A program made the translations under genes and the position numbers. Of a stretch of 64,000 nucleotides of DNA, positions 315-25,509 are shown piece after piece. Every line of letters starts with the position of its first letter. Position 1 is the first letter of the stretch. Below the pieces are notes generated by a model. The model did not search any database, was not told where the DNA came from, and saw only the letters and a program-made list of their open reading frames with translations. The stretch is taken from IMG/VR virus record IMGVR_UViG_3300020048_000003; one strand, written 5' to 3'. The stretch comes from a virus.

Positions 315-319
315 CAAAT

Positions 320-1309: not shown

Positions 1310-1313
1310 TATA

Positions 1314-1974: not shown

Positions 1975-2053
1975 GCCTCTGTATTAGCCTTGTCTTCGAA
2001 ACAAGAGACGTATAATAGGAACGAAAATGTGGGTTCGAATCCCACCAGAGGTT
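1975..2053 (+). tRNA. tRNA-like gene, anticodon loop CTTCGAA (TCG, Arg?), reduced D-arm
   Basis: Acceptor GCCTCTG/CAGAGGT. Anticodon stem CTTGT/ACAAG. T-arm GTGGG-TTCGAAT-CCCAC. Confidence 0.45.
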
Positions 2054-2120
2054 CAACATCTTAATCTATGAAAATAGAAAAATACGAGTTTTAATTATTT
2101 ATATATAGAAATAAAACAAT

Positions 2121-3110
2121 ATGAATAATTTTAATTGTAAAATATGTGGAAAAGAATATCCATTATTATTAAGTTTTAGTAAACATTTAGCAAATAAACA
2201 TAAATATAATGGAGGATTAGTACAATATTATATTGATTATGAAAATTTCATAGTTCCTAAATGTATTTATTGTGATAATGAGGCTAAAAGAAAAGAAGGA
2301 TTAGAGTATAGAAAAACTTGTGGTGATAAAAATTGTATTAAAAAATTAAATATTAACAAAAAACACACAGAAGAAACAAAATCACAAATTAGTAAAAAAT
2401 TAATTGAGTCTCATAAAAAAGGTGAGCATTCTGGTTGGGATTTTATTAATAAGGATTTGAATAGAAGAAGTTATCCAGAAAAATGGTTCATTAAGAATGT
2501 ACTAGAAAAATATTCTTTTTATTACAAATATACAATAGAAGAAAAATTTCCTTTTGGTAAGTATTGGCTAGATTTTGCTATTATTGATATGAAAATTGAT
2601 ATAGAAATAGATGGTCAACAACATTTTAGAACGATTGATGCTATTGAACATGATAAAGAAAGAGATGAATTTGTGTTGAGTAAAGATTGGAAAGTATATA
2701 GAATTGCTTGGATTGAATTGAAAAATAATAGAGAAGATGTTGTTGATGATTTTTTAAATTGGATTGAACAAAATGAAATTAAATATCATAAATATGATGT
2801 TGATGAAATTGTTCATAAATTTAAAAAAAATAATTATCGAACTTATGATGTTAAAAAAATTAAACCATCAAAACATAAAAAATCTATTGAATATTTTTCA
2901 GATAGAAAAAATCAATATGATTTGAGGCAAATTCCTAATATAGAAAAAATTATTAATAGTGATATTGATTTTTCAAAAGAAGGTTGGGTAAAAAAGGTTT
3001 CTATTCTAATTGGTATATCAGAGAATAAAGGTTCGGGTTGGATGAAAAGAAACATGAATGAATTTTTTATTAATAATTGTTGGAAAAGAAAATCAAAGAA
3101 GGTCTTGTAG
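2121..3110 (+). CDS. homing-endonuclease-like protein (zinc-finger N-terminus, NUMOD3-like motif, C-terminal Vsr/DUF559-like endonuclease fold)
   Basis: CxxC...CxxC at the N-terminus. HTEETKSQISKKL resembles NUMOD3. IEIDGQQH...DKERDEFVLSKDWKVYRIAW resembles the DUF559/Vsr-like nuclease fold. The 3' end overlaps the tRNA at 3101. Confidence 0.5.
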   Translation: MNNFNCKICGKEYPLLLSFSKHLANKHKYNGGLVQYYIDYENFIVPKCIYCDNEAKRKEGLEYRKTCGDKNCIKKLNINKKHTEETKSQISKKLIESHKKGEHSGWDFINKDLNRRSYPEKWFIKNVLEKYSFYYKYTIEEKFPFGKYWLDFAIIDMKIDIEIDGQQHFRTIDAIEHDKERDEFVLSKDWKVYRIAWIELKNNREDVVDDFLNWIEQNEIKYHKYDVDEIVHKFKKNNYRTYDVKKIKPSKHKKSIEYFSDRKNQYDLRQIPNIEKIINSDIDFSKEGWVKKVSILIGISENKGSGWMKRNMNEFFINNCWKRKSKKVL

Positions 3111-3172
3111 TTCAACGGATAGAATTAAAATTTGCGGAATTTTAGATATGAGTTCGATTCTCATCAAGATCA
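3101..3172 (+). tRNA. tRNA (anticodon loop TTGCGGA, GCG, Arg?)
   Basis: Acceptor GGTCTTG/CAAGATC. T-arm ATGAG-TTCGATT-CTCAT. D-loop AACGGATAGA. Confidence 0.5.
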
Positions 3173-3197
3173 CAAAATTTAAGAATAAATTTAACAT

Positions 3198-3443
3198 ATG
3201 AAATATTGTCCAAGACATGGTGAAGTTGAGCCAGGATTTCTTTTAATAGAGACTTCTAGTGGTTCGTTTAGTATAGAACAAAATGATTGTCCAATTGACA
3301 ATTGTTTTGAAGATTGTTTTGATATGCCCTTATCAAATAGCACAAAAGAAGAACTTAAAATATATCAGAAGTATGTGGTACAATCTGAAAGAGTAGAAAA
3401 ACTTAAAAAACTCAAAAAATTTCCAAGATATTTTTTTTATTAA
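3198..3443 (+). CDS. small Cys-rich hypothetical protein, family A
   Basis: ORF track. C-terminal tail ...VEKLKKLKKF. Confidence 0.4.
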   Translation: MKYCPRHGEVEPGFLLIETSSGSFSIEQNDCPIDNCFEDCFDMPLSNSTKEELKIYQKYVVQSERVEKLKKLKKFPRYFFY

Positions 3444-3484
3444 AAACTTTTTTATACTTTTGTATTATAATTAATAAAATAAAT

Positions 3485-3567
3485 GCCCCGATGGTGAAAT
3501 AGGTAGACACGTAAGACTTAAAATCTTATTCTCATTGCGAGAGTGCCGGTCCGATTCCGGCTCGGGG
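3485..3567 (+). tRNA. tRNA-Leu (TAA)
   Basis: Acceptor GCCCCGA/TCGGGGT. D-arm GGTGAAATAGGTAGACAC. Anticodon stem TAAGA/TCTTA with loop CTTAAAA. Long variable arm. T-arm GCCGG-TCCGATT-CCGGC. Confidence 0.7.
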
Positions 3568-3678
3568 TACAAAATCAAAAATAGAAAAAACTTAATAAAA
3601 AATAATACTATATAATAATATGAAAAATATCTTAAACATAGTTCAACAACAACAGATTTAGGTCTGATTGGGTTAACT

Positions 3679-3951
3679 ATGTCTTTTTTTACCCAATCTC
3701 CTGAGGATTGGGTTTTTTATTTTAAAATAATTTGGAATATGGAAAATAATAAAGGAAGAAGAAATGAAATAACAAAATTAAAATGGAAGAAAAGAATTTC
3801 ATTTTTAAGAACACAATATAATGTTGAAGAACCTGCAAAATTATATTGCTATAAGACAACTGGAAAACCTTGTAGTTGTCCTATGTGTTCACCTTATAAA
3901 TATGATAGAAATGAAAAGCATAAAAAGAATTTTGAAGATGATGTTCAGTAA
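3679..3951 (+). CDS. small Cys-rich hypothetical protein
   Basis: ORF track. Confidence 0.35.
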   Translation: MSFFTQSPEDWVFYFKIIWNMENNKGRRNEITKLKWKKRISFLRTQYNVEEPAKLYCYKTTGKPCSCPMCSPYKYDRNEKHKKNFEDDVQ

Positions 3952-4000
3952 AAATGTGTTTTCATTTAAAATGAAAACGATAAAATAATGAACAAATATT

Positions 4001-4071
4001 GTCCTGTGGTGTAATTGGCTAGCACGAAACACTTTGACTGTTTTAGATAAAGTTCGAATCTTTACAGGACA
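4001..4071 (+). tRNA. tRNA-Gln (TTG)
   Basis: Acceptor GTCCTGT/ACAGGAC. Anticodon stem AAACA/TGTTT with loop CTTTGAC. Confidence 0.6.
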
Positions 4072-4077
4072 ACACAT

Positions 4078-4165
4078 TGACCTATGATGGAAAAGAGTAG
4101 ACATACCAGGTTTTGACCCTGGTGCCCCAACGGGTGTGAAGGTTCGAGTCCTTCTAGGTTAGCCA
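4078..4165 (+). tRNA. tRNA, type II, with a genomically encoded CCA; anticodon loop TTTTGAC
   Basis: Acceptor TGACCTA/TAGGTTA. Anticodon stem CCAGG/CCTGG. Variable-arm hairpin. T-arm GAAGG-TTCGAGT-CCTTC. Ends GCCA. Confidence 0.5.
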
Positions 4166-4168
4166 TAT

Positions 4169-4242
4169 TGACCCGTAGAATAATTGCGTAGTTCGTCACC
4201 CTTTGAAGGTGTATGGTATTGGTTCGAGTCCAATCCGGTCAA
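4169..4242 (+). tRNA. tRNA (anticodon loop CTTTGAA, TTG)
   Basis: Acceptor TGACCCG/CCGGTCA with one mismatch. T-arm ATTGG-TTCGAGT-CCAAT. Confidence 0.5.
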
Positions 4243-4247
4243 CATAT

Positions 4248-4321
4248 TATCCAATAGCACAATCGGTGGTTGCAACTGCCTCTGAAGCAGTAGGTTATAG
4301 GTTCAAGTCCTATTTGGATAA
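4248..4321 (+). tRNA. tRNA-Gln (CTG)
   Basis: Acceptor TATCCAA/TTGGATA. Anticodon stem ACTGC/GCAGT with loop CTCTGAA. T-arm ATAGG-TTCAAGT-CCTAT. Confidence 0.55.
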
Positions 4322-4324
4322 CTT

Positions 4325-10681: not shown

Positions 10682-10708
10682 AGTTTTTAAGTTTTTTTAT
10701 AGTTTATT

Positions 10709-10873
10709 ATCGTGTCATTTCAAGTGCGTCCTCAAGAGAGAAATTCAATTCTACTTTATCGGTAAAAAAATCAGCTTTTTCAGCATCGGTGAGATCATTG
10801 ATTGTCATAGAAGGTTTTACACCACATTCAATCATTTTTGATTCAACTTCAAAATTTTCAGTATAGTTTGTCA
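10709..10873 (-). CDS. small acidic hypothetical protein (55 aa; not in the ORF track)
   Basis: Hand translation gives MTNYTENFEVESKMIECGV.... A class-1 promoter element lies directly upstream at 10913-10926. Confidence 0.35.
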
Positions 10874-10945
10874 TAGTTTTGTAGATTAAAGTGATTAGTA
10901 ATTCGTTAACAATGCAAAGATACGGATTTTACCCGGAAGAAAAAA

Positions 10946-11152
10946 TTACTTCAATTTTTGAAATTCTTTGTAAATAGCAATATCACAAAAAATATTTATT
11001 ATTGTTGCGACACTTCCAATTATTGTTAAAGATGGAAAATAAAGAAATCCTTTGGTGAATCCAATATAAAGTACTGGAAATGTGTATATTATATGCACAA
11101 GTATAGATACTAGTATAAGTGCTTTTAAAATAAGTTTGTTATAATTATCCAT
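10946..11152 (-). CDS. small membrane protein
   Basis: ORF track. Two transmembrane helices. Confidence 0.4.
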   Translation of the reverse strand: MDNYNKLILKALILVSILVHIIYTFPVLYIGFTKGFLYFPSLTIIGSVATIINIFCDIAIYKEFQKLK

Positions 11153-11577: not shown

Positions 11578-14500
11578 TTAGAAAATATAACGTACTCCAA
11601 CTTGTGCTCCCCAAGTACTTTGAGTTGAAAGTACAGGTGTGAATGTTGATGTTGGTAATGAAGAACCAGTATAATTCATTTGATAATGAGGAATACCATC
11701 TGTTCCAGTTTTACTCATTTTTAATAAAGTAATATCATATGAACCTAAGGTTTGTTTTTGATAGATACCCCAACTTGAGTTTAGTAAATTTCCAACATTT
11801 AATAAATCTAAGCTTATTTGTAATGTTTGTCTTTTATTATTTTTACCTACTCCTGTAAATATATCTTGTAAAAGTTTTACATCAAATCTATTTACCCAAG
11901 GCATAATAACACCATATCTCTCAGCATATTGTCCTTTGTTTTCTGATAAGTATTCATCTTGATCAACATAAGCCCAGAAAGCAGCATTTTGTTCTTCTGA
12001 TGTAAATATTGTTTCAAATGTACCATCTGCTAATTTTTTAGTAATAGGATCAAAAATTATTTCGGACTCATCTTTAGGAATATACATAAGGTCAGCGGCA
12101 TTACCATCACCGTTCATGTCATTTGAATAGATATAATCTAAACGACCTTGGCTACTACCTTGATATACTAATGATACTGAAGTTCCTAAATGTTTAAGAT
12201 ATTCTTTATGATAAGTTACTGAACCTATAACTCTGTTAGGTACAGCGAATTGTGAATAACTTAATTCTAAAGCATTTTGACTTGCTACTGTTGGATTGCT
12301 TGCCCATGCTGATGATGCTGCGGAACCTGGATTTGAAGTAAAGTCTTTTACACCAAAGTGTGTATAAGCAATAAAGCCACTAAATCCATTTTGGAATTGT
12401 TTACTTAACTGTGCGGTTAATGAATATGAGTATCCATTTTCAATTGAAAGTTCATTAGTTAGAACCATTGCGTTGCTAACTCCTGGATTGATTTTGCGAG
12501 TAGCAGAGAAGTATCTTGGTCGCATATCTGGACCATTGAATGTTGCGGTGCTATCTTTTTGGTTTGCATTATATTGAATAACATCATTGATATTATTTGA
12601 ATACATACCTTCAAATGTTCCAACAATACCCCAAGGTAATTTAACATCAACTGCTAAATTAGTTCTCCAAACTTGTGGCATTTTGAATTTTGGATCAACA
12701 ACAGCAATAGAGCCAGGTGCAACACTTGATGGTTGACTTGGAAATAATGTTGTGTTGGATAAGTGATAGAAAGGATCTGGATTGAAAGTTAAATCTACTA
12801 ATTGAGCAGCTTTTGTAACTTCAACTGTGTTTTGTAGAGTTCCAGAATTTGTTGGTTGGTTTGTGAACCATACAAATGGTAATCTACCTGTAAAAACTCC
12901 TGAACCTCCTCGTACTTGAAGTGATTTATCTCCCTTAACATCCCAGTTAAAACTTACTCTAGGAGAGAAGGTGGGTTTGGATTCGGGCCATTTGCCAGCA
13001 TCTAATGTTAAATCTTCACCATTTAAATCTTTGAAAGTTAAATCTGTGATTGATGGATTAGGAATTAAATTATCAAAATATATTGGTAGTTCAATTCTTA
13101 AGCCTGCTGTTACTTTCAAATTATCTAAAATTTGAATTTCATCTTGTCCATAAAGAGCAGCGTAGCCAAAGGTTAATTCAGCATATCCATTTCCTGCGCC
13201 TTCATAAGGATAAGTTAGACCAAATGTAGTAGGAATTCCACCATTATAAAAATCATCCATAGATGCATATCTATAATAGCTTGTTCCATATCTTTTGTAA
13301 CTATTAGCAAAATACATTTGATCATAAGATGCACCTATTGTAAATGTGTGCATTCCCATATAATAGTTATAGTTATTAATAAAAGTTAATGTGTTATTTT
13401 TTACATCATTATCTTTTGTAAATAATTCATAACCAAATGACATGTAAGGATCTCCATCTTTATAAATATCAACAAATGGAAAAGGTGAACTGTTACTATT
13501 TCTAGTATCTTGAATTTTAGTATAAGTAAATAAGAATTTATTTGCAGATTTACCCCAAACACTATTTAATTCTGCTGATACTGAACCTACTGTATTAAGA
13601 AATCCATAATTAGAATTACTGAATGCCATAGATTTTTCTCCAATACGACCAAATGTTGAACGAGTTCCTGGTGCACTTGTTGCATTAACTTGTTGATCGT
13701 TAGTTGATTCAACATAGTTATATCTAACAGCGAATTTGTGATGTTGGTTAATATTCCAATCAATTTTTCCTAAAATTTTGTAATTATTACTTTCAAAATT
13801 TCCAAAATTTTGATAACTTCCAGCATCATATTGATATGTATTTTTGAGATAATCACTCATAACTGACATATCAGTAGCAGTTGTTCTAGAAATATAATTC
13901 GCAGCATCTGGTTCAATACCATTTTCTGGATCGCTTACACTCCAAGGAATTCCTGGATATGATGATTTTTCCTTTTCTGCGTTAAAGAATATAAATAATT
14001 TATTCTTTATAATTGGTCCTCCTACTGATGCTCCGTAACTAAGTGTACTTTGATCGGTTAGTGTTAACTCTTTATCTTCTACTTTTTTTCCATTGAAGGA
14101 TTTATCACGGAAATAAGTATAAGCGGTTCCTTTCCATTCGTTAGTACCACTTTTAGTAACAGCATTAATATTTGCACCTGTAAAATTTGACTGTCTAATA
14201 TCAAATGGTGCGACATTTACGCTAATTTCTTCAATAGCATCTAAACTAATTGGTTGTGCATCACCACCTGGTAGTGATTTTGTGCTTAGTCCGAAGTTGT
14301 TGTTGAAGTTTGCACCGTCAACTGTGATGTTATTGTATCTTCCATCACGACCTGCAAAACTGGTTCCGTTGGATTGTGGTGTCATTTTAGTGAAATCTGT
14401 AATACTTCTATTGATAGAAGGTAATGCTTTGATTTCAGCCAAATTGATGTTTGTTGATGCTCCAGTTTTATTACCATCAATTAATTGATTTTTTTGTGCT

Positions 14501-14925
14501 GTTACTTCAACACCTGTAATTTCACTGGCATTTTGAGATAGTGTTTCATTTAATCCTAGTGTTTGTCCTAAGTTTAAATTGATATTTTCCTCAACAATTG
14601 GTTTGTAGCCAACGTAGGATATGGTTAGTGTGTAAGGTCCTCCAACTTTTAAGTTAGTAATTCGGTAGAGCCCATCCACATCTGTAACTGTGCCGTATTG
14701 TGTTCCTGTTGGAACATGAACTAATACAACACTTGCACCTGGCAATGAGACTTTGTTTTCTCCATATATCTTACCACTTATACCTGAAGTGGTAACTTGA
14801 GCAAACATTATCAAACTGCTAAATGAGAACAATAGAAAAAAGATTAATCTTTTTAGGTTTTTTGTCATAGTTTTGATTTTTTTTTTGACTTCCCGCGGAA
14901 TTACGAGAGTTATCATTTTTATCAA
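11578..14925 (-). CDS. TonB-dependent outer-membrane receptor (Bacteroidetes type: CarbopepD_reg N-domain, plug, 22-strand barrel)
   Basis: Signal peptide. N-terminal domain VTTSGISGKIYGENKVSLPGASVVLVHVPTGTQYGTVTDVDGLYRI. Plug-like region. C-terminus ends ...VGVRYIF. GC is noticeably higher than flanking DNA. Confidence 0.85.
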   Translation of the reverse strand: MIKMITLVIPREVKKKIKTMTKNLKRLIFFLLFSFSSLIMFAQVTTSGISGKIYGENKVSLPGASVVLVHVPTGTQYGTVTDVDGLYRITNLKVGGPYTLTISYVGYKPIVEENINLNLGQTLGLNETLSQNASEITGVEVTAQKNQLIDGNKTGASTNINLAEIKALPSINRSITDFTKMTPQSNGTSFAGRDGRYNNITVDGANFNNNFGLSTKSLPGGDAQPISLDAIEEISVNVAPFDIRQSNFTGANINAVTKSGTNEWKGTAYTYFRDKSFNGKKVEDKELTLTDQSTLSYGASVGGPIIKNKLFIFFNAEKEKSSYPGIPWSVSDPENGIEPDAANYISRTTATDMSVMSDYLKNTYQYDAGSYQNFGNFESNNYKILGKIDWNINQHHKFAVRYNYVESTNDQQVNATSAPGTRSTFGRIGEKSMAFSNSNYGFLNTVGSVSAELNSVWGKSANKFLFTYTKIQDTRNSNSSPFPFVDIYKDGDPYMSFGYELFTKDNDVKNNTLTFINNYNYYMGMHTFTIGASYDQMYFANSYKRYGTSYYRYASMDDFYNGGIPTTFGLTYPYEGAGNGYAELTFGYAALYGQDEIQILDNLKVTAGLRIELPIYFDNLIPNPSITDLTFKDLNGEDLTLDAGKWPESKPTFSPRVSFNWDVKGDKSLQVRGGSGVFTGRLPFVWFTNQPTNSGTLQNTVEVTKAAQLVDLTFNPDPFYHLSNTTLFPSQPSSVAPGSIAVVDPKFKMPQVWRTNLAVDVKLPWGIVGTFEGMYSNNINDVIQYNANQKDSTATFNGPDMRPRYFSATRKINPGVSNAMVLTNELSIENGYSYSLTAQLSKQFQNGFSGFIAYTHFGVKDFTSNPGSAASSAWASNPTVASQNALELSYSQFAVPNRVIGSVTYHKEYLKHLGTSVSLVYQGSSQGRLDYIYSNDMNGDGNAADLMYIPKDESEIIFDPITKKLADGTFETIFTSEEQNAAFWAYVDQDEYLSENKGQYAERYGVIMPWVNRFDVKLLQDIFTGVGKNNKRQTLQISLDLLNVGNLLNSSWGIYQKQTLGSYDITLLKMSKTGTDGIPHYQMNYTGSSLPTSTFTPVLSTQSTWGAQVGVRYIF

Positions 14926-16687: not shown

Positions 16688-16951
16688 TTAATTTGATTTG
16701 AGATTAAGTGTAACTGGAACTTCGTGTCCTGGTAATCCAAGTGCCTGTAAGTGTTTACAAGTACGGTAACGCCTCCAACCTGGGCAGGAGCAACCCATAT
16801 GACCTTTTATGATATTCTGTGAAACGATATAAACTCTATCAGACGATTCCGAACGAATTTCAAAGCGATTTTTCCACAATTTATTATCTGGAAGAAAATC
16901 AGATTTTTTCACATATAATGTTATTGATGAATCTTTTACCAAATTTGACAT
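16688..16951 (-). CDS. SWIM zinc-finger protein
   Basis: CSCPGWRRYRTCKHLQAL, a CxC...CxH pattern. Confidence 0.55.
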   Translation of the reverse strand: MSNLVKDSSITLYVKKSDFLPDNKLWKNRFEIRSESSDRVYIVSQNIIKGHMGCSCPGWRRYRTCKHLQALGLPGHEVPVTLNLKSN

Positions 16952-16980
16952 ATCTTGTTTTTAAGAGGTTAGCACTATAT

Positions 16981-17028
16981 TGTTTCAACAGTACAAAAGT
17001 ACTATTTTTCTTTGAATAAAAAAAATCC
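16981..17028 (-). promoter_or_regulatory. class-2 promoter element (~46 bp; contains TACTTTTG, matching the Bacteroidetes -7 box, on the minus strand)
   Basis: One of 5 near-identical copies of TGTTTCAACARTACAAAAGTACAATTTTT..TGAATAAAAAAAAT. About 40 nt upstream of the start of 16688..16951. Confidence 0.5.
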
Positions 17029-17082
17029 AAATGAAATAATAATTATAAAAAAACTTTTAATATAAAATTTTATAAGTAAATT

Positions 17083-17898
17083 ATGTTTACTTTAAAAGAA
17101 TTGCAAGATAAAGTTGAAAAAGGAATATCAGAATACATAGGTTTTGATGTGAATAAAATTTTTGAACAATCTGATTATATTACAATTTATGGTGGTGCTG
17201 TCCGTGATAGTCTTGCTGGTGTTGAAATACACGATATAGATATTTTATGTATGCCAAATTCTGCACATAAACTTAAAACCTATCTTAATTCAGTTGGTTA
17301 TGAATCACTTGATTTATATGACCCTGATACTTTGAATATGTATCATGGTATATCATTAATTTCAGAACCTTGGACCCTTATGAATGATAAAAAGAAAATT
17401 ATTCAAATTATTAGACCAAGATGGAATGGACAACTTTATAGAAAAGGTAAAATTAGTGAATATCATGCGGCTGAAGTGACAAATTATCAACTAGCATATT
17501 ACAATTTAATAAAAAATGTTGATATTTCTTGTTGTGGTGTATTTTTAGAAAATCATGATAGAGAAATTAGGTTAAGAGAGGCTTGTAAAAATTCAATAAT
17601 TAATTGCTTATCTCAAACTTATACAGTTAACAAATGGGCAAAATTATATAGTTCAAATAGAACTGAAAATAGAAAACACAAATTATCAACTAGAGGTTGG
17701 ATAGAACTTGATCAAGCTATATCTATTAGTAGTCCATATACTCCGGCTCATAAAATATTCTTAAAAAAAGAAAGATTATTCAAAATTATGAATTTAGAGT
17801 TTAATCCTGAGTATAATTATAAAATTTGGACAGAAGAAGAATATTTAAATAGAATTAAACCTTTTGAGCCTATTGATATTTGGGATTTACTCAAATAA
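17083..17898 (+). CDS. Pol-beta-type nucleotidyltransferase, tRNA CCA-adding/poly(A) polymerase head-domain family
   Basis: IYGGAVRDSLAGVEIHDIDIL matches the GGxVRD...DxD head-domain signature. Confidence 0.55.
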   Translation: MFTLKELQDKVEKGISEYIGFDVNKIFEQSDYITIYGGAVRDSLAGVEIHDIDILCMPNSAHKLKTYLNSVGYESLDLYDPDTLNMYHGISLISEPWTLMNDKKKIIQIIRPRWNGQLYRKGKISEYHAAEVTNYQLAYYNLIKNVDISCCGVFLENHDREIRLREACKNSIINCLSQTYTVNKWAKLYSSNRTENRKHKLSTRGWIELDQAISISSPYTPAHKIFLKKERLFKIMNLEFNPEYNYKIWTEEEYLNRIKPFEPIDIWDLLK

Positions 17899-17902
17899 AA
17901 AA

Positions 17903-17930
17903 GCCAGATTTTTTCTGGCTTTTTTTCTTA
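17903..17930. terminator. bidirectional rho-independent terminator
   Basis: AGCCAGA-TTTTTT-CTGGCT with a T-run, between convergent genes. Confidence 0.55.
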
Positions 17931-17935
17931 AAGTT

Positions 17936-18709
17936 CTATTTTTTACTCCAAGTTTCAAATTCTTTTACTATTTCTAATAATTTTGGATCCAATTTTTCAT
18001 ATGCTTCATCTGAAATTGAGGTTGGTATTCCATAAAATGCTTGTGCTATTCCACCAGCCATACAACCTGTTGTATCGCAATCACCACCTAACCATATAGT
18101 TAGACGAATACAATCTTCGTAATTTTTACTTTCCAAGAAACATACAATTGCTTCTGGTACAGAACCTTGACAAGTTTCTTGAAACCAATAATCTGGTTTC
18201 CGTTCGGCAATAGTTGTATCAAGGTCGTAATCAAAATTATTTTCAATATAATTTTTTATTTCTTGTTTACCTTGTCCAGTTCTTGCTAAGAAGATAGCAG
18301 CGGCAATTGCTTGTGCGCCTTTAATTCCTTCTGGGTGATTATGTGTAACTTCGGCACTTTTCTTTGCCATTTCCAATGTTTTTTCCAATGTATCATAGGC
18401 AAATCCAATTGGACTAATTCGCATTGCGGAGCCATTACCAAAACTATTGTATGGTTGTGGATCTGAGAAATCTATCCATTTTTTGAACATTCCGCCATAT
18501 CCAGCATTTCGGAACATTCTTGCATATTTTTGATATGTTTCTGTGAAATCTAAGTTGTGCATTATACAATCTGCTGTTGCTACGGATAAAACTGTATCAT
18601 CAGTAAATTTAGATTTTTCAGAAAAAAGTGGAAAATCATTTTTTTCACCTTTCCAATTTTTGAATTCATATACGGAGCCTATAATATCTCCTGCGATTGC
18701 ACCTATCAT
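17936..18709 (-). CDS. ADP-ribosylglycohydrolase (DraG/ARH family)
   Basis: MIGAIAGDIIGS...TDDT...GGDCDTTGCMAGGIAQAFYG match the family signatures. Confidence 0.7.
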   Translation of the reverse strand: MIGAIAGDIIGSVYEFKNWKGEKNDFPLFSEKSKFTDDTVLSVATADCIMHNLDFTETYQKYARMFRNAGYGGMFKKWIDFSDPQPYNSFGNGSAMRISPIGFAYDTLEKTLEMAKKSAEVTHNHPEGIKGAQAIAAAIFLARTGQGKQEIKNYIENNFDYDLDTTIAERKPDYWFQETCQGSVPEAIVCFLESKNYEDCIRLTIWLGGDCDTTGCMAGGIAQAFYGIPTSISDEAYEKLDPKLLEIVKEFETWSKK

Positions 18710-18737
18710 AATTTTTTATTTTAAAATAGTGAGAAAA

Positions 18738-19067
18738 TTAAGAAAAGTTTAGTTCTTTAATTTTTTGTAATTTTTTCTGACGATTTTGATTCTTCATTTT
18801 TCTTTCTAATTGAAGAATTTTATTATCACTCCATTTATTAAATATCATATCTCTTATATGACTAAAATCGTTATCAGCAAGAAATCTTTCAACTTTTGTT
18901 ATTTCTAAATCACGATCACCAGAAAGTGTATATTCAATATCCATTACATGTAGAATAAAGTCTCTAACTTTTATGAGAGATAATGAAGAAAGATAATTTT
19001 TTAATTCAACTATCTCAATAGGATTTAGTTTTGCGACTAATACTATATTTAAATCAAATTTTTTCAT
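18738..19067 (-). CDS. hypothetical protein, family A
   Basis: C-terminal tail ...RQKKLQKIKELNFS. Confidence 0.45.
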   Translation of the reverse strand: MKKFDLNIVLVAKLNPIEIVELKNYLSSLSLIKVRDFILHVMDIEYTLSGDRDLEITKVERFLADNDFSHIRDMIFNKWSDNKILQLERKMKNQNRQKKLQKIKELNFS

Positions 19068-19069
19068 AA

Positions 19070-19711
19070 TTAGAATTTATAAAGTTTAGTAGGTTTACGA
19101 CTTTTTAACATATGGAGGCTCATGTTCATTTCAGAAATTCCTTTTTCTAATTTAGCTTTGTCTCCTATTCTTTTAAGAACCCATCCTTCAAGCATGTCAA
19201 CTAATGTGATTTTTTTCCAAAGTTCTAAGAAATTTTCATAGAAAGTTTTTACTCTATACACATTTTCATTAATTTTATAGAGATAATCATTTTCATCAAC
19301 AGTACCGAAAAGTTCATCAAGTAATTTTACTCTTTCTTCAAATGTAGTACCAATAAGATATTCACCATTATAAACCAAAATGTCAAAAATTACAAATTTG
19401 TGATTCCAAGGTTTACCATCAATTCCTTTTTTATTTTTATTCATGTATTCGCCAACAATAACATTCCAGTTATCATTACCGCAATTAAGAACTTCTAAGT
19501 CATTGATTTTCAATTTGAAATTTGATAAATTCTCATTTTCATGTCTACCAAAATTTTTGAAATCTTTTCCTTTTATGTAGATAGTGCAACATGAACCATT
19601 CAATTTTGGTTGACCTAAATACATACCTTCATATTGTCCAAGTTTTTCTGGATTAGTTGTGTACTCTGGACGAGGAGGATAGTAGTACTTAAAACGAGTA
19701 TATGGTTGCAT
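19070..19711 (-). CDS. minimal ATP-dependent ligase (DNA/RNA ligase nucleotidyltransferase superfamily)
   Basis: Motif I KLNGS around the Lys. Motif III VIVGEY. FDIL. Motif IV EGWVLK. A class-1 promoter lies upstream. Confidence 0.55.
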   Translation of the reverse strand: MQPYTRFKYYYPPRPEYTTNPEKLGQYEGMYLGQPKLNGSCCTIYIKGKDFKNFGRHENENLSNFKLKINDLEVLNCGNDNWNVIVGEYMNKNKKGIDGKPWNHKFVIFDILVYNGEYLIGTTFEERVKLLDELFGTVDENDYLYKINENVYRVKTFYENFLELWKKITLVDMLEGWVLKRIGDKAKLEKGISEMNMSLHMLKSRKPTKLYKF

Positions 19712-19732
19712 ATTTTTCTATTTTGATTAGAA

Positions 19733-19746
19733 TGCAAAGATACGGA
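19733..19746 (-). promoter_or_regulatory. class-1 promoter element (coding strand CCGTATCTTTGCATT; -7 box TAnnTTTG)
   Basis: One of about 11 copies of TGCAAAGATACGG on the plus strand, each 15-40 nt upstream of a minus-strand start codon. Confidence 0.5.
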
Positions 19747-19765
19747 AATATTATGGATTAAAAAA

Positions 19766-20089
19766 TTAACTTTTATACCAAGGTTTATATTTCTTGATTT
19801 GTTCTAGTTTTATTTTTCTTTTTACTTTAATATCAACAATCACTTCTTTTGGTTTGAATTTATAAAATTTTGATTTTTCAAAAATTGATATTCTATCATT
19901 TATAAACTTGAGTCTAAATCCTTCGCAGTAGCTAAAATTAGACCAACGGTAAGCTTTGGAAATATCCTGAGTAATCTCGTATGAATAACCAAGAGGTCTC
20001 TTCCTAAAGGTTTTAATGTAGCCTACGAAAGTTTGCTCATTTTTAATTTCAATTACATAAATACCTGATTTAAATTTTATTTCTTTCAT
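19766..20089 (-). CDS. hypothetical protein, family A
   Basis: C-terminal tail KRKIKLEQIKKYKPWYKS. Confidence 0.45.
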   Translation of the reverse strand: MKEIKFKSGIYVIEIKNEQTFVGYIKTFRKRPLGYSYEITQDISKAYRWSNFSYCEGFRLKFINDRISIFEKSKFYKFKPKEVIVDIKVKRKIKLEQIKKYKPWYKS

Positions 20090-20153
20090 TTAGCAAAATT
20101 AAATTAAAATCCATTATAAAAAAATAATATATAAAGAAAAGTAATATTTAGAT

Positions 20154-20354
20154 ATGAAGATAAAAAAATTTTCAAAATTAAATGAGGGATTTTTAGACAA
20201 ATCCGAGTATTTCTGGGAGGTTAGAAAGAATATAAATAATTTTGGTTTTGATAATGATGAAGTCTTAGATTTTTTTATTGCTGAAATTGGTAAAGAAAAG
20301 AGTAAAGAGATATTAGAGAAACTGCACGATAAATTAGAAAGAGATGATTTTTAA
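20154..20354 (+). CDS. small hypothetical protein
   Basis: ORF track. Confidence 0.35.
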   Translation: MKIKKFSKLNEGFLDKSEYFWEVRKNINNFGFDNDEVLDFFIAEIGKEKSKEILEKLHDKLERDDF

Positions 20355-20374
20355 GAAAAAATAATAAACACAAA

Positions 20375-20887
20375 ATGAAAACAACAAATAATAAAATACT
20401 TCCTTTTTCAATATTTGAAGGGTATGATGATGGTGATATTGGTATAGAAAATAAAAAAGAGACTGTTGAGAAATTAAATAAACTATTATCTAATTATTTC
20501 ATTTTATATATGAAGTTATTAAATTTTCATTGGAATATTGTTAGTAAAAGATTTAATAATATTCATAAATTCTTTGAAGAACTTTATGATAAAATTTTTG
20601 AAAATATTGATAGTGTTGCAGAAAGAATTAGAATAATTGGTGGTAGACCTATAAGTAGTTTGGAAGGCTATTTAAAAAATACGGACTTGAAAGAAAATAC
20701 TGATTCAGATGTTCCTGATGTTGATAAAATGATAGAAGAAATTCTCTATGATTATGAAACAATAATAAAAGAAATTAGAGATTATTTAAGTGATGATTTA
20801 GATAATGGTACAAGTAAATTTTTAGAAGATTTAATTGAAGCACACGAAAAAGACGCATGGATGTTAAGATCAAATTTAGAGAATTAA
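20375..20887 (+). CDS. Dps-like ferritin (DNA-protection-during-starvation family)
   Basis: LNFHWNIVSKRFNNIHKFFEELYD...IDSVAERIRIIGGRP matches the Dps signature NFHWNVKG...HE.FEE.Y...D.IAERI..LGG. Confidence 0.65.
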   Translation: MKTTNNKILPFSIFEGYDDGDIGIENKKETVEKLNKLLSNYFILYMKLLNFHWNIVSKRFNNIHKFFEELYDKIFENIDSVAERIRIIGGRPISSLEGYLKNTDLKENTDSDVPDVDKMIEEILYDYETIIKEIRDYLSDDLDNGTSKFLEDLIEAHEKDAWMLRSNLEN

Positions 20888-20891
20888 TGTT

Positions 20892-21233
20892 ATGATAAAT
20901 TTAATTACTATAATAATACCGTTTATAATCACCATATTATTTTCAATATTTAATGGTTTAATTATTAATTGGAGGTCGGCTACAGGTGAAGATGCGATTA
21001 GACTTTCAAAAAAATGGCATAAAGTTGGATTTTTAATACATATGTTAATTGTAGCTGAAATTTTTTTACTTGGTGGTTGGATATGGGGAATAGTTGGATT
21101 TTTTACAGTTTGGATTATACATAATATAATCATTGCGATTCAAATGGGTCAGAAATGGTATTATGTTGGAACAACATCTTGGTTTGATAGACAAATACGA
21201 AAAATATTCAAGAATGTAAATTTTGATAAATAA
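20892..21233 (+). CDS. membrane protein
   Basis: Three hydrophobic helices. Confidence 0.45.
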   Translation: MINLITIIIPFIITILFSIFNGLIINWRSATGEDAIRLSKKWHKVGFLIHMLIVAEIFLLGGWIWGIVGFFTVWIIHNIIIAIQMGQKWYYVGTTSWFDRQIRKIFKNVNFDK

Positions 21234-21238
21234 AAAAA

Positions 21239-21262
21239 GCCACCTATTGGTGGCTTTTTTTT
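21239..21262 (+). terminator. rho-independent terminator
   Basis: GCCACC-TATT-GGTGGC followed by a T8 run. Confidence 0.6.
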
Positions 21263-21436
21263 AACATATTAATTACTATCTCTATTATAAAATCTAATTT
21301 TTGCTTTTTTGGCTTATCTATATTATATATTATTATTATAAATTTACCAAGTCGGGGGACTGTTACACCTTTCCATATTTTATTAATTTATTGGTTAATA
21401 ATCTGTTAGTGAGTTTATATTGAATTCTTCAAAGAA

Positions 21437-21592
21437 GAATGGATTATTCAGGAAAATTGCAAGTATCAATTCGGTTAGAATCATCAACAAAATTAACAAC
21501 GGTTTTGTCAAAATTCAAATTGGGAGAAAGTTTCAAAGAAGATTCAAATCCGAAACCAGTAGTCAACAAATCATCAAACATATCATTCATAA
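21437..21592 (-). CDS. small acidic hypothetical protein (49 aa; not in the ORF track)
   Basis: Hand translation gives MNDMFDDLLTTGFGFESSLKL.... A class-2 promoter copy lies upstream. Confidence 0.3.
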
Positions 21593-21620
21593 TTTTTAAT
21601 TTTTAAAGGATTAGTGTTTC

Positions 21621-21666
21621 TGTTTCAACAATACAAAAGTACAATTTTTATTTGAATAAAAAAAAT
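21621..21666 (-). promoter_or_regulatory. class-2 promoter element
   Basis: Second copy of the ~46-bp repeat. Confidence 0.5.
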
Positions 21667-21677
21667 TCTATAAAAAT

Positions 21678-22685
21678 TTATTGAAAAGTTTGATTATTTA
21701 TTACAGGATTTTCGTTTATATTAAGTACATTTACTGTTACTGTTGCTGAACTTGATAGAGCCGGTGTACCATTATCAATTACTTTAATCACTAATGCGAA
21801 AGATGGTGTTGTTTCATAATCAAGTTGAGAAGGATTAGTTACAAGTAATGCACCTGTTGCGGCATTTATAGAGAATGTGCCACCCGTATTTCCAGACTCA
21901 ATTGAGAAAGTTTTTGTTTGTCCAGCATCAGGATCAGTGGTGACAATAGTTCCAACTAATGTGGCATTTGCAGAATTTTCATTCACATTAAATGTTTGAT
22001 TATTAATAACTGGTGTTTCGTTTACATTAAGTATATTAACTGTAATTGTTGCTTGTGCAGATAGTGGTACAGTTGCATTGTCTTGTACTTTTACAACAAT
22101 AGGAATGGATTGAACTGTTTCATAATTCAATATTGGAGAATTAAAAACTGTTAATACTCCTGATGTTGCGTTTATTGCAAATACTCCTCCAGTGTTTCCT
22201 GATACGATAGAATATGTTTTTGTTTGTCTTGCTTCTGGGTCCGTAGCAACTACGGTACCAATTACTGTACTATTTGATGAATTTTCATTTATACTAAATG
22301 TTTGAGGTGCAATACTTGGCACAGTATTATATTCATTTAATGTGATAAGATAAGTAGAAAATTTAGGATCTGGTAGACCATTTGTTGTACCATTATCTAA
22401 TAGTTTAAGTGTGAAAGTAAATGTAGTTAATGTACTATTATTTATTGCTGTAGCGTCATTTACAAATATATCACCAAGTGTATTTTTCCATAGTGTCTGT
22501 GTTTCTACTATACTCCAAGTAATTGTGTTATTTTCAGGATCACAACCTGTAAAATGTTCAACTTGTAAGTTGGCTGTTACTGGTTTATAGAAATTTATTG
22601 GTTTTACTACATATGTAGGACATATAGTTTGACTGAAGCCAATGAATGACATTAGCATTAAGATGATTGTAAATAATTTTTTCAT
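21678..22685 (-). CDS. secreted cadherin-like repeat protein
   Basis: Signal peptide. Tandem ~95-aa repeats containing SGNTGGVFAINATSGVLTV..NYETVQS, a cadherin-like L.YE signature. Confidence 0.55.
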   Translation of the reverse strand: MKKLFTIILMLMSFIGFSQTICPTYVVKPINFYKPVTANLQVEHFTGCDPENNTITWSIVETQTLWKNTLGDIFVNDATAINNSTLTTFTFTLKLLDNGTTNGLPDPKFSTYLITLNEYNTVPSIAPQTFSINENSSNSTVIGTVVATDPEARQTKTYSIVSGNTGGVFAINATSGVLTVFNSPILNYETVQSIPIVVKVQDNATVPLSAQATITVNILNVNETPVINNQTFNVNENSANATLVGTIVTTDPDAGQTKTFSIESGNTGGTFSINAATGALLVTNPSQLDYETTPSFALVIKVIDNGTPALSSSATVTVNVLNINENPVINNQTFQ

Positions 22686-22731
22686 AATTTTGATATTTAT
22701 TATATATATTTAGTGTGATTTTTTTAAAAGT

Positions 22732-23370
22732 TTAATTTGGAAATATGAAATTGAAACATAAATTATAAGTATATCCATTTAAGATATTGTCTGGTGTCAT
22801 AGTTAAATTGATAGTATCTGTAAATTTATAACTAACACCACCAGATATTTTAAAAAATTTAACTATATTTAGTTCAACTTCGGCACCAGGTTCAATAATA
22901 TAAAATATATCTTGATAATTATCATCATAAATTGTCAGGTTATTATTATCACAATAAGAGGCTGAACCTACACCACCTTTAAAAGTTGCATTAACGTGAA
23001 TTGGTAATACTGGAAAAAATCTTACTTCGGTGAATAAACCACCATATCCATATCTAAAATATCCACCCCGACTTTGATATCCATAGATTGTAGAATAATT
23101 ATAAGGTATGTATGGATTATACAAATTATCAGAATTTGTATAACCATACACACCAATAGCAAAATTCTCATTTAATATACAACCTATTGATAGTCCAATT
23201 TCAATTGCTCTATTATCACTTAAATTTTGGTCATTTAACAACTGATAACCTAATTTAAATGAGCCAGATAAAGATACTCTTGTGGTATCAGAATTTCCAA
23301 AGAGATTAATATCTTGTGAAAATGTAGATAAACTACATAATATAAAAAGTAAAATAAATATTTTTTTCAT
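22732..23370 (-). CDS. putative outer-membrane beta-barrel protein
   Basis: Signal peptide. Alternating Gly/Tyr-rich amphipathic strands. The C-terminus ends in an aromatic residue. Confidence 0.45.
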   Translation of the reverse strand: MKKIFILLFILCSLSTFSQDINLFGNSDTTRVSLSGSFKLGYQLLNDQNLSDNRAIEIGLSIGCILNENFAIGVYGYTNSDNLYNPYIPYNYSTIYGYQSRGGYFRYGYGGLFTEVRFFPVLPIHVNATFKGGVGSASYCDNNNLTIYDDNYQDIFYIIEPGAEVELNIVKFFKISGGVSYKFTDTINLTMTPDNILNGYTYNLCFNFIFPN

Positions 23371-23371
23371 T

Positions 23372-23857
23372 TTAATAATTTTGAGTAAGAACTAATTTAT
23401 ATGCAACATTATAAACTCTGCTACCGTGATTGCTACAACTTGATGGATGAAGGGGTTTTCTACATTTATGATATGTAGCACCACATACAGGACAAGTTAA
23501 GGTGTATTTTACAATTTTTTTAAGAGACTTTGCACGACCTTCTTCACCATCTTTATATTTTTCAGCGCCATGACAACGTTTTCCATCACCACCAAGTTCT
23601 ATACATTTGGCTTTCCAAACTTTATCATGATTGTGTATAGGAGTTAATGCGTGTGCAATTTCGTGTAAGATAGTATCTTTGATTGCCCAATCAGTCATTA
23701 AAGGAACAAGATATTGAGAAAGTTCAATTTGTTTATCGGTGTAATCACAACAACCGAAGGCTCTTTTCCTTCTATTGGTAGTTACAGTCCAATTTTTCAA
23801 TTCGCTATGATTTTTCAGTAAATTTTTTGTTAGTGTAATTGCCTGATTTATAGTCAT
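23372..23857 (-). CDS. SprT-like zinc metalloprotease with a C-terminal zinc ribbon
   Basis: HEIAHAL HExxH motif. C-terminal CPVCGATYHKC...C..H. Confidence 0.55.
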   Translation of the reverse strand: MTINQAITLTKNLLKNHSELKNWTVTTNRRKRAFGCCDYTDKQIELSQYLVPLMTDWAIKDTILHEIAHALTPIHNHDKVWKAKCIELGGDGKRCHGAEKYKDGEEGRAKSLKKIVKYTLTCPVCGATYHKCRKPLHPSSCSNHGSRVYNVAYKLVLTQNY

Positions 23858-23898
23858 ATGATTTTTTTAGAGGTTTAGAGGTTTAGAAAGATTTATTC

Positions 23899-23945
23899 TG
23901 TTTCAACAATACAAAAGTACAATTTTTTCCTGAATAAAAAAAATT
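23899..23945 (-). promoter_or_regulatory. class-2 promoter element
   Basis: Third copy. Preceded by the TAGAGGTT TAGAGGTT tandem. Confidence 0.5.
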
Positions 23946-23956
23946 ACATGAAAAAA

Positions 23957-23980
23957 AGCCACCTTTCGGTGGCTTCCCAG
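23957..23980 (-). terminator. rho-independent terminator (minus strand)
   Basis: AGCCACC-GAAA-GGTGGCT with a T-run on the minus strand, after 23988..24335. Confidence 0.5.
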
Positions 23981-23987
23981 GCTGGCA

Positions 23988-24335
23988 TTAGGAACTGGCA
24001 GTCTGATGTTCTTTTAATTTTTCTAATCTAATATTAAATAAATATCTTATAATATGTTTTTGCATTTCATAAAAATTAATATCTGACAATTTGACAGGTT
24101 TTTCTAATTTTTCGTCCCATAAATGAGACATTCCTGACACTCTAAAGAATAAATCATTAAATATTTTAATTTTTATATTATCTTTTTCAAAAACTACATT
24201 TTCAAGTTTTCTCCTACAATAGAATTTACCAAATCTATGTTCATCAGTTTCATCATAATCTTCGTGAAATGAGAAACCTTCTGATTCTAGGTCGGAGATT
24301 ATTTTTTTAACTGAATTACTCTCCAAGTTTGTCAT
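23988..24335 (-). CDS. hypothetical protein
   Basis: ORF track. Confidence 0.45.
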   Translation of the reverse strand: MTNLESNSVKKIISDLESEGFSFHEDYDETDEHRFGKFYCRRKLENVVFEKDNIKIKIFNDLFFRVSGMSHLWDEKLEKPVKLSDINFYEMQKHIIRYLFNIRLEKLKEHQTASS

Positions 24336-24408
24336 ATTATTTGGTTATTATAGTTTATAAAAAAGGACAACAAGAGATTTCTCTTGTTGTCCTAACCTCT
24401 TCTAACTC

Positions 24409-25014
24409 TTAACGGGTTTCTTTCAACATAAGAACTGGGTTGATATCACCAATAAGTCCTTCAACATCACCATTTCCTACGGTGAAAGCTTCGTTGATTG
24501 CATCTGACTTAATGTTATAGGTAACACGGTTGGTAAAAAGTTCTTCTTTTTCAGCATCGGTCATAAAGTCGTTTGCTTCACCAAGGATCAGTTCTTCAAT
24601 TTTCTCGGCATATTTGCGATAAAGTTCGTCATTCATAATGAGTTCTGATTTTTCTTCAACGAAAGTTTCGCCATATTTTTCACGAAGTTCAGTTGCGCGG
24701 TCTTCGTCCATTGCTCCGGTATATTTCTTTACAACGATGAACATAACTTTGTCACCATTTTCTGATTCAACTTTAATTGATTCAGGATTGCGTTTCAGTT
24801 TGGTATACATTTTCTTGTATTCATCAAGAGCGGTTGCTTTGATTTCACCTTCAACTGATTTCTGCTCGGCAGTCAGGTCTTTAATGTCGTTTTTCACTTT
24901 ATTGAATTTTGCAAGTTTTTCTGCAAAATCAGCACCTTTTACAACTGCAACTGGGTGTAAGTCTTTCTTTACAGTTTCTTTTTTTGCTACTACGGTTTTC
25001 TTTCCTAATGCCAT
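24409..25014 (-). CDS. Lys/Glu-rich hypothetical protein, probably highly expressed
   Basis: Two tandem class-2 promoter copies lie upstream. Higher GC than its neighbours. Confidence 0.5.
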   Translation of the reverse strand: MALGKKTVVAKKETVKKDLHPVAVVKGADFAEKLAKFNKVKNDIKDLTAEQKSVEGEIKATALDEYKKMYTKLKRNPESIKVESENGDKVMFIVVKKYTGAMDEDRATELREKYGETFVEEKSELIMNDELYRKYAEKIEELILGEANDFMTDAEKEELFTNRVTYNIKSDAINEAFTVGNGDVEGLIGDINPVLMLKETR

Positions 25015-25048
25015 AATGTTATGTTTTTTTTAGAGGTTTATATCTTAT

Positions 25049-25095
25049 TGTTTCAACAGTACAAAAGTACAATTTTTATCTGAATAAAAAAAATC
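25049..25095 (-). promoter_or_regulatory. class-2 promoter element (proximal copy)
   Basis: Fourth copy. Confidence 0.5.
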
Positions 25096-25142
25096 TGATT
25101 AAAAATTTCTTTTGTTAATGTTTTTGATGATTGAGTGTTAGT

Positions 25143-25188
25143 GTTTCAACAGTACAAAAGTACAATTTTTATCTGAATAAAAAAAATC
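25143..25188 (-). promoter_or_regulatory. class-2 promoter element (distal tandem copy)
   Basis: Fifth copy, about 95 bp from the fourth. Confidence 0.45.
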
Positions 25189-25509
25189 CTATTTTTTAAT
25201 TTTTTTCGCAATGAATTCAATATCTTTAATAAAAGTTTGAATTAATATATCTCCAAAATAACCCATTCCAGTTCCTTCATAATTTTCTGATAAAAAGAAA
25301 AGTTTCATAATGGTAAATCCAAAATATACTGTCCATACCGCAGTACATAACATTGATAAACAGAGGTAAATTACTTCTATTATTCCAAATGGAAATAATG
25401 TGGCACCTATCAAAAATGCCGCAGACATAATATAAAGAACAATAGTTTCTTTAAGTGTTGTATAAAAACTTTTTAAGTCTTGATTAAATTCTAATGCTGT
25501 CTTTTTCAT
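25189..25509 (-). CDS. membrane protein
   Basis: Three transmembrane helices. Confidence 0.45.
   Translation of the reverse strand: MKKTALEFNQDLKSFYTTLKETIVLYIMSAAFLIGATLFPFGIIEVIYLCLSMLCTAVWTVYFGFTIMKLFFLSENYEGTGMGYFGDILIQTFIKDIEFIAKKIKK

Follow-up and report, generated by a model that had tools for sequence, protein, structure and literature searches.

A repeated intergenic cassette in an uncultured jumbo phage, probably a Bacteroidota-type promoter with a conserved leader

The IMG/VR virus record IMGVR_UViG_3300020048_000003 was analyzed over a stretch of 64,000 nucleotides (the 64-kb "window"), which carries five near-identical intergenic copies of a 46-nt element, each facing the next minus-strand gene. 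The copies are most likely strong promoters and as such ordinary in kind, but the same cassette stands before the same small set of genes in related lake phages. In our assessment (probability about 0.8), each copy is a promoter-plus-leader cassette for the primary, sigma-A-type RNA polymerase of a Bacteroidota host, read on the minus strand; as part of the same reading, the near-identity of the copies probably reflects homogenization and not independent conservation of every base. A T8/TTATT tract, an A5 tract and the box TACTTTTG would together form the promoter, transcription would start 4–5 nt past the box, at the G of GTTGAAAC, and the mRNA would carry an A-rich, unstructured leader of 38–50 nt without a Shine-Dalgarno sequence.

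Results

Repeat copies and promoter architecture

A search with the 29-nt core TGTTTCAACARTACAAAAGTACAATTTTT returned five matches, all on the + strand, at 16981 (one mismatch), 21621, 23899, 25049, and 25142, and none in 100 dinucleotide-preserving shuffles. Copy counts and enrichment figures, here and below, refer to the 64-kb window. The upstream half of the element, T7-ATTC..AAAAATTGTACTTTTG, separately matches the same five places. The search confirmed the five same-strand intergenic copies described in the initial annotation and four of their start positions; the fifth, given there as 25143, is off by one and lies at 25142. Mean pairwise identity across the 47-nt element is 93%, as against 41–44% in the 14–40 nt flanking it on each side, the background level for the 27% G+C DNA of the window, which gives the 46-nt repeat sharp boundaries. 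Read on the minus strand, the copies have the form (G/A)A-T8-ATTC-N4-A5(T/A)-(T/A)G-TACTTTTG-TAYT-GTTGAAACA. The repeat is not a stand-alone 46-bp unit: the element runs on into a conserved 5′ leader, and the part that defines its class lies downstream of the −7 box.

The box TACTTTTG, of the form TAnnTTTG (refined to TAHHTTTG), is present in five of five copies and always faces the next minus-strand gene, in agreement with its original assignment as a Bacteroidetes −7 box. Relative to the predicted +1, which was placed by the 4–5 nt rule of PMC6847099, every copy has the T8/TTATT tract at approximately −36 to −26 (TTATT at −30 to −26), the A5 tract at −20 to −16 and the box at −12 to −5. In Flavobacterium johnsoniae, the −7 box is T−12 A−11 H H T−8 T−7 T−6 G−5, with the start 4–5 nt after it, AT-rich motifs at −18 and −28, a weak −33 motif and a mean leader of 33 nt (PMC6847099, in which the starts were predicted from RNA-seq data). 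The F. psychrophilum box likewise occupies −12 to −5 (PMC9723704). The AT-rich motifs near −18 and −28 that are expected of Bacteroidota sigma-A promoters are present in all copies, and all five fit the Flavobacterium promoter model.

Copy 1 (16981–17026, minus strand) has its box at 16994–17001 and its predicted +1 at the G at 16989. For the other copies, also on the minus strand, the box and predicted +1 are at 21634–21641 and 21629 (copy 2, 21621–21666), 23912–23919 and 23907 (copy 3, 23899–23944), 25062–25069 and 25057 (copy 4, 25049–25094, the proximal member of a tandem pair), and 25155–25162 and 25150 (copy 5, 25142–25187, the distal member, which begins directly past the stop codon of the open reading frame (ORF) 25189–25509). 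From the first base of the box to the next minus-strand ATG, the distances are 50, 51, 62, 55, and 148 nt for copies 1–5; from the end of the element to the ATG they are 30–42 nt, except for the distal tandem copy (128 nt). The spacing between copies 4 and 5 is 93 nt, and the entire 93-nt unit is 80% identical between them, so that promoter and leader were duplicated as one.

The leader

Predicted leaders are 38, 39, 50, and 43 nt long for copies 1–4 and 136 nt from the distal copy, and their conserved form is GTTGAAAC-RATAGA..AAACCTC-TAAAAA. All lie on the minus strand: that of unit 1 (16952–16989) reads GTTGAAACAATATAGTGCTAACCTCTTAAAAACAAGAT and is conserved in relatives, that of unit 2 (21591–21629) extends from +1 to the ATG, that of unit 3 (23858–23907) holds two AAACCTCT repeats, and that of unit 4 (25015–25057), reading GTTGAAACAATAAGATATAAACCTCTAAAAAAAACATAACATT, runs for 43 nt to the ATG at 25014. 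In the RNA, the parts of the leader would be a fixed 5′ end (GUUGAAAC-RAUAGA), AAACCUC or ACACUU at approximately +20, and an A-run before the AUG. The motif TAGAGGTT (minus strand AACCTCTA), described as recurring between the element and the ATG, follows copy 4 once and copy 3 twice, and reads AAGAGGTT after copy 1; three of the four ATG-proximal leaders thus carry it, but it is absent after copies 2 and 5. Across the window AAACCTC is not enriched (10 occurrences, 6.8 expected), yet in related phages it is conserved at about +20 of the leader.

A hairpin, AGTAC-AAAA-GTACT, had been proposed for each copy. It is present in copy 1 only, for which the RNA folding z-score is −2.1. Copies 4 and 5 retain a 4-bp GTAC/GTAC stem and copies 2 and 3 have ATAC..GTAC, with 3 bp; these four copies score −0.04 to +1.0, folding no better than shuffled sequence, and the hairpin is not conserved. 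RNAalifold predicted no base pairs (0) across 18 leaders, and Rfam at its gathering threshold returned only tRNAs from the window and no leader family. On these two results, a structured cis-regulatory leader RNA was rejected.

A distinct class among the promoter-like sites

The pattern TTTTTT-N12–18-TAHHTTTG has 26 matches in the window, which fall at about 22 distinct sites where 2.8 ± 2.4 would be expected; almost all stand shortly before a same-strand ATG. Approximately 16 sites other than the five copies combine the same upstream half (T6–7 AT..N..) with a TAYCTTTG box; they are 60% identical to one another and have shorter leaders. When the 12 nt following the −7 box are compared with TAYTGTTGAAAC, the five copies match at 12 of 12 positions and the other 26 candidates at 9 or fewer, the background mean being 3.9. 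The class is therefore defined by the sequence after the −7 box and not by the box, and the proposal of a distinct promoter class is upheld by this score. One of the generic promoter-like sites, TAATTTTG at 20094–20124 (minus strand), lies 4 nt before the ATG of ORF 19766–20089, the mRNA of which may be leaderless or nearly so, unless the start codon has been mis-assigned.

Class members in related phages

Relatives were collected by pattern scans of IMG/VR and JGI metagenomes and from loci fetched via the Lys/Glu-rich protein encoded downstream of the tandem pair (loci are designated L001, L004, and so on). This gave 33 distinct further members, on low-GC phage contigs of which many come from lakes. 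All 33 are intergenic and face the next ORF, and the ATG, where an ORF could be called, follows the start of the box by 36–62 nt, mostly 44–62 nt, with the exception of distal tandem copies and L304. Their common form is T-run/TTTGG – CCG – TAYCTTTG – TAYT – GTTGAAAC – RATAGA – .. – AAACCTC or ACACTT – TAAAAA – .. – ATG; in members with TTTGG, its TTG lies 19–20 nt upstream of the −7 box. Orthologous genes bear the cassette in L004/L271, L281, L005/6, L097, L258, L272, L291, L303, L310, and others. The genes that recur behind it encode the Lys/Glu-rich protein (MALGKK..), a SprT-like protease (MTINQA..), a small acidic peptide (..LLTGFG), and an "SNLP" protein of about 85 residues, which corresponds to window gene 16688–16951.

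A profile hidden Markov model (HMM) built from the relatives only recovered the five window copies as its top matches, with E values of 2e-11 to 4e-8 (copy 1, 7e-11, aligned over 17026–16955; copy 2, 3.5e-8; copy 3, 1e-8; copy 4, 2.4e-11; copy 5, 3.4e-10). The alignments enter the leader for four of the five copies, that of copy 3 stopping at model position 59, about 20 nt past the −7 box. The next matches are at 57875–57808 and 10947–10882, and generic promoters align over the promoter half only. The second of these sites (10882–10947, minus strand) is a diverged sixth member of the class, T6..CCG-TATCTTTG-CATTGTTAACGAA with leader, before ORF 10707–10874; it aligns through the leader (E = 8e-6), and the site at 10922 within it is orthologous to a full class promoter at 20037 of L004. 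The first (57808–57875, minus strand; E = 2e-7) is class-like, T7ATTC..CCG-TATCTTTG-TACTATCAAAAC, and matches the class box at 9 of 12 positions. The five copies, with one or two diverged ones, would mark a co-expressed set of genes kept across a clade of freshwater jumbo phages and consisting of the 87-residue CxC..CxH protein unit, the small acidic peptide, the SprT-like protease unit and the Lys/Glu-rich protein.

Megablast of the 16–26 kb region against INPHARED phages gave no match, and a related-locus search with the SprT-like protein retrieved no relatives, the query that succeeded being the Lys/Glu-rich protein. The box was also considered as a mimic of a host stable-RNA promoter and rejected: among the genome matches listed for a loose 17-base pattern, most were chance or coding hits scattered over many phyla, and no 16S gene lay downstream. 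The scans also picked up an unrelated group of some 20 or more IMG/VR contigs of about 50–88 kb and approximately 34% G+C (including L010, L012, and L016) with a conserved intergenic TTTG-N19-TATCTTTG-TATTGTTGAAAAAGCAAAGAGATA. The second half of that motif is an inverted −7 box, and it matched only for containing the search pattern.

Homogenization of the copies

Orthologous promoters in the window and in L004 or L281 are 60–81% identical, less than the 93% found among copies within the window, and the copies have therefore been homogenized within their lineage. The window copies have the spacer AAAAATTG and the box TACTTTTG in common, and L001 is of the same type (98%); L004 and L281 keep CCG-TATCTTTG. 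The C/T in TAYTG tracks the gene, with the SprT-like gene preceded by T and the Lys/Glu-rich gene by C in the window, L004, and L281 alike, and the retention of this orthologue-specific base argues against wholesale conversion. Near-identity could have come about by recombination or conversion among copies, or by co-adaptation to a single polymerase or factor. Between the region and L004, colinearity is interrupted only by gene-cassette indels that abut promoters; these comprise the 212-residue gene with the cadherin gene, the block spanning 16353–11145, and a stretch of about 2.5 kb that in L004 separates the Lys/Glu-rich gene from the SprT-like one.

One further locus, L318 (Logan SRR7760390 contig, 1181 nt), begins inside copy 4 and ends inside copy 3. 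The idea that its ends are transcript ends was rejected, the contig being broken by assembly at the repeat. The repeat thus fragments short-read assemblies of the phage.

Transcription units and the tandem promoters

Copy 1 heads a unit running from 16951 to 11578 that encodes an 87-residue CxC..CxH protein, a DnaJ-domain protein, four small ORFs and a 1115-residue β-barrel protein. The 87-residue product (16688–16951, minus strand) has a CxC..CxH motif, CSCPGWRRYRTCKH, that resembles a SWIM zinc finger, with no Pfam match, and its "SNLP" orthologues of about 85 residues follow class promoters in many related contigs. At the far end of the unit, the 1115-residue protein (11578–14925, minus strand) combines a CarboxypepD_reg domain with an outer-membrane β-barrel of TonB-dependent-receptor/SusC-like type; L004 is without the block that holds this gene. 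Copy 2 heads the gene of a 48-residue acidic peptide (21444–21590), 62% identical to its counterpart in L004 (E = 6e-18). Copy 3 heads the SprT-like gene (23372–23857), a 212-residue gene and a cadherin-domain gene (21678–22685). The class had tentatively been called late, but what these genes encode (SprT-like, DnaJ-domain, outer-membrane barrel and cadherin-domain proteins and small peptides) speaks against a module for virion or late functions. A T4-late-like motif, TATAAATA, was considered and set aside, being weakly over-represented in the window (34 found, 24.6 expected).

Terminators sit at the expected ends of the units. A strong intrinsic terminator with a 13-bp stem followed by T5 (24364–24393, minus strand) stands directly after the Lys/Glu-rich gene. 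A terminator hairpin just upstream of copy 3 (23951–23973, minus strand; GCCACC-gaaa-GGTGGC, then T7) ends the unit of the Lys/Glu-rich and 115-residue genes, and a bidirectional terminator at 21231–21262 (A8-GCCACC-aata-GGTGGC-T7) closes both unit 2 and the convergent + strand genes. The GCCACC/GGTGGC stem is common to the terminators at 21239–21254 and 23958–23973, and has three matches in the window with up to two mismatches (0.07 expected).

The tandem pair precedes the Lys/Glu-rich gene (24409–25014, minus strand; 201 residues). Class promoters before this gene number two in the window (93 nt apart), two in L281 (90 nt apart), and one in L004. The 642-kb phage LR756502.1 (L247) has a homologue with 31% protein identity behind a different 46-nt canonical promoter, TTTGG..CCGTATATTTG, duplicated 108 nt apart; the tandem copies, TTTGG..CCGTATATTTGTATATAATTAA, are at 19721–19766 and 19829–19874. 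The tandem arrangement noticed at the outset is real, and both L281 and LR756502 also have it at this gene, the latter with another promoter sequence. Because tandem promoters recur and a strong terminator directly follows the gene, the arrangement points to selection for very high expression of the Lys/Glu-rich protein. Its suggested structural or scaffold-like role is not supported. The protein has no family match in PHROGs, Pfam or PDB sequences, and its AlphaFold2 model (mean predicted local distance difference test score 80.7) has no PDB fold match and, among viral proteins, resembles only uncharacterized ones. None of its 123 homologues is meaningfully named, the label "delta 1-pyrroline-5-carboxylate dehydrogenase" on a 199-residue protein appearing spurious. 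An identical protein is present on contigs of 209 and 286 kb.

Host

A Bacteroidota host, as first proposed, is supported by the approximately 22 promoter sites against 2.8 expected, together with the lack of sigma-70 enrichment (101 sites, 102 expected), the near-absence of Shine-Dalgarno signals and the nearest relatives. Shine-Dalgarno-like 4-mers precede one of 111 ORFs, and regions upstream of ORFs are A-rich. The nearest GenBank phages by tblastn are uncultured genomes of 634, 636, 642, and 735 kb; these are the 634–735 kb phages for which Al-Shayeb et al. predicted replication in Bacteroidetes. Similar Bacteroidetes lake phages, including a 308-kb outgroup with 27.3% GC, are described in a study of bS21 jumbo phages (PMC9723584) that is without promoter analysis.

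Discussion

Alternative explanations

Several points weigh against the reading as a host-type promoter with leader, or limit it. At −33, the window copies have the TTT of the T8 run and not the textbook TTTG/TTG. Conservation to +15 and beyond exceeds what a promoter needs, and more than initiation may be encoded. The 20-nt search pattern forced the 12-nt box in the scanned matches, so the invariance of the box among scanned relatives is partly ascertainment; unbiased evidence comes from the window, from the unforced variants in L004 (CCTTGTTGAACGG, CAATGTTGAAACG, CACTAATTGAAACG) and from the unforced flanks. Finally, promoter activity and strength, recognition by sigma-A, the start at the G, and co-expression of the gene set are all inferred from sequence.

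What the conserved +1 to +30 segment does bears on the strongest of the alternatives, which refines the host-promoter reading without excluding it. The segment could help the polymerase to escape, as a suitably tuned initial transcribed sequence, or it could be an operator or an RNA 5′-end or translation signal. It is conceivable, though the less probable outcome, that the promoter is of host type but belongs to a regulated class, in which the TAYT-GTTGAAAC-RATAGA box over +1 serves as an operator or RNA 5′-end signal for a phage- or host-encoded factor that turns the gene set on or off at a given stage. The box separates the class sharply from generic promoters with the same upstream half, its core GTTGAA(A)C persists where −4 to −1 vary (L004 13614, 18094, 18710), conservation extends to about +30, beyond the needs of initiation, and the same gene set bears the box across phages. 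The dyad, by contrast, is not conserved: TGTT-GA-AACA of the window becomes TGTTGAAACG in most relatives, and dyad symmetry of TGTTGAAACA as an operator was rejected on this ground. RNAalifold on the 18 leaders found no RNA structure that could act as the signal, nor did a candidate regulator emerge. Conservation well beyond the host consensus is, moreover, also seen in the strong early promoters of phages such as T4, which have no operator there. More speculative is a phage "leader code", whereby GUUGAAAC-RAUAGA and AAACCUC/ACACUU-UAAAAA (at about +20) would be read by a phage-encoded factor or by phage-modified ribosomes or RNases. We consider this improbable, but if true, the code would privilege a small conserved set of genes, in expression or in timing, in hosts without Shine-Dalgarno pairing, and would constitute a post-initiation control layer common to a whole clade of uncultured freshwater Bacteroidota jumbo phages.

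An equally doubtful proposition concerns the near-identity of the copies, which would be kept alike as homology patches for the shuffling of accessory modules, the promoter role being secondary. It has in its favor that identity within the genome (93%) is greater than that between orthologous promoters (60–81%), that the L004 cassette indels abut promoters, and that the early-promoter stem-loop elements (PeSLs) of T4-type phages act in this way (PMC2839356, PMC4122927). However, a stem-loop half lies beside only one of the five copies, the indels adjoin the element on one side only, as any intergenic insertion would, no chimeric or swapped cassettes and no junction inside the element were seen, and the orthologue-specific C/T in TAYTG is retained. 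Recognition by a phage-encoded polymerase or sigma factor, as a middle or late class, is very unlikely. In its favor, promoters read by phage-specific polymerases are typically very highly conserved through +1, and jumbo phages often encode their own transcription factors. Yet promoters of the T7, N4, or phiKZ kind lack host-type boxes, and here a complete host-type −7 box and upstream AT-tract geometry are present and common to the generic sites; the downstream genes are not structural, and distant relatives have canonical TTTG-N20-TAnnTTTG promoters before the same gene. Hardly credible at all is a terminator or 3′ untranslated element of the upstream gene. The minus-strand element does open with a T8 run, and copies 2 and 5 start no more than 12 nt from the upstream stop codon, but the T-run is not preceded by the G+C-rich hairpin of an intrinsic terminator, folding energies are no better than shuffled in four of five copies, separate genuine terminators lie nearby, and spacing is constrained to the downstream ATG and not to the upstream stop.

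Comparison with known systems

Read as a host-type promoter, the cassette most resembles the sigma-ABfr promoters of Bacteroidota (−33 TTTG/−7 TAnnTTTG; PMC6847099, PMC9723704), with which it has in common the TAHHTTTG box, AT tracts that lie upstream by approximately one and two turns of the helix, a leader some 40 nt long that lacks a Shine-Dalgarno sequence and is A-rich before the AUG, and, in related phages, a TTG 19–20 nt upstream. It differs in that −33 falls in a T8 run, in the near-identity of the phage copies to one another, and in the conservation of the 13 nt that follow the box and of some 30 nt of leader, which is not reported for host promoters. The cassette also resembles T4-type early promoters and PeSLs, with recombination between copies only a possibility here. 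In both, host-type promoters with AT-rich sequence upstream are repeated and strongly conserved, the copies cluster where a large myovirus-like genome is plastic, among its accessory genes and ORFans, cassette indels abut them, and the genome has a gp32-type single-stranded DNA-binding protein and a tRNA array. In contrast to PeSLs, the repeated unit of the window contains no consistent stem-loop terminator (only copy 3 has an upstream hairpin, outside the repeat), its consensus is that of Bacteroidota and not sigma-70, and its conserved part enters the leader.

Tandem strong promoters are known from P1/P2 of rRNA operons and from phage early regions. Like these, the arrangement before the Lys/Glu-rich gene consists of two full promoters approximately 90–110 nt apart serving one short, terminator-bounded gene, and it recurs in three phages. 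Unlike them, the window pair is a recent duplicate of one 93-nt unit and not two differently regulated promoters.

As a predicted promoter, the cassette allows the transcription units of an uncultured jumbo phage (at least 286 kb) to be mapped concretely, and would define a small conserved set of highly expressed genes that are good candidates for host take-over functions. Gene content apart, the promoter type and the missing Shine-Dalgarno sequences point to a Bacteroidota host. For Flavobacteria, which have a limited genetic toolkit, the compact cassette (about 90 nt) and the tandem version of it could be used as strong expression parts. The understanding of phage transcription is unchanged unless the leader box proves to be a regulatory signal.

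Other features of the window

Besides the gp32-type single-stranded DNA-binding protein and the tRNA array, the window encodes a helicase, a methylase, UvdE, a ligase-like protein, an ADP-ribosylglycohydrolase, and many small ORFs. Four tRNA-Gln genes stand in a row in the tRNA array (49–4322), and a promoter-like site at 3431–3462 (+ strand) lies just before the tRNA-Leu at 3485. Rfam detects a tRNA at 1975–2053 that ARAGORN missed, the ARAGORN calls at 311–401 and 1315–1410 are without Rfam confirmation, and several ARAGORN calls of 86–96 nt have odd anticodon positions.

Repeats with a period of about 171 nt (60–78% identical) occupy 50155–51266, inside ORFs 50120–50593 and 50590–51309, which suggests a tandem repeat domain protein ending ..LFKNH. 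Between 34000 and 39700 (minus strand), approximately 14 small ORFs are packed with 4-nt overlaps and a recurring junction motif (TTTCATAAGTTATATTT on the + strand). This run may represent a paralogous family or a conserved translational-coupling signal.

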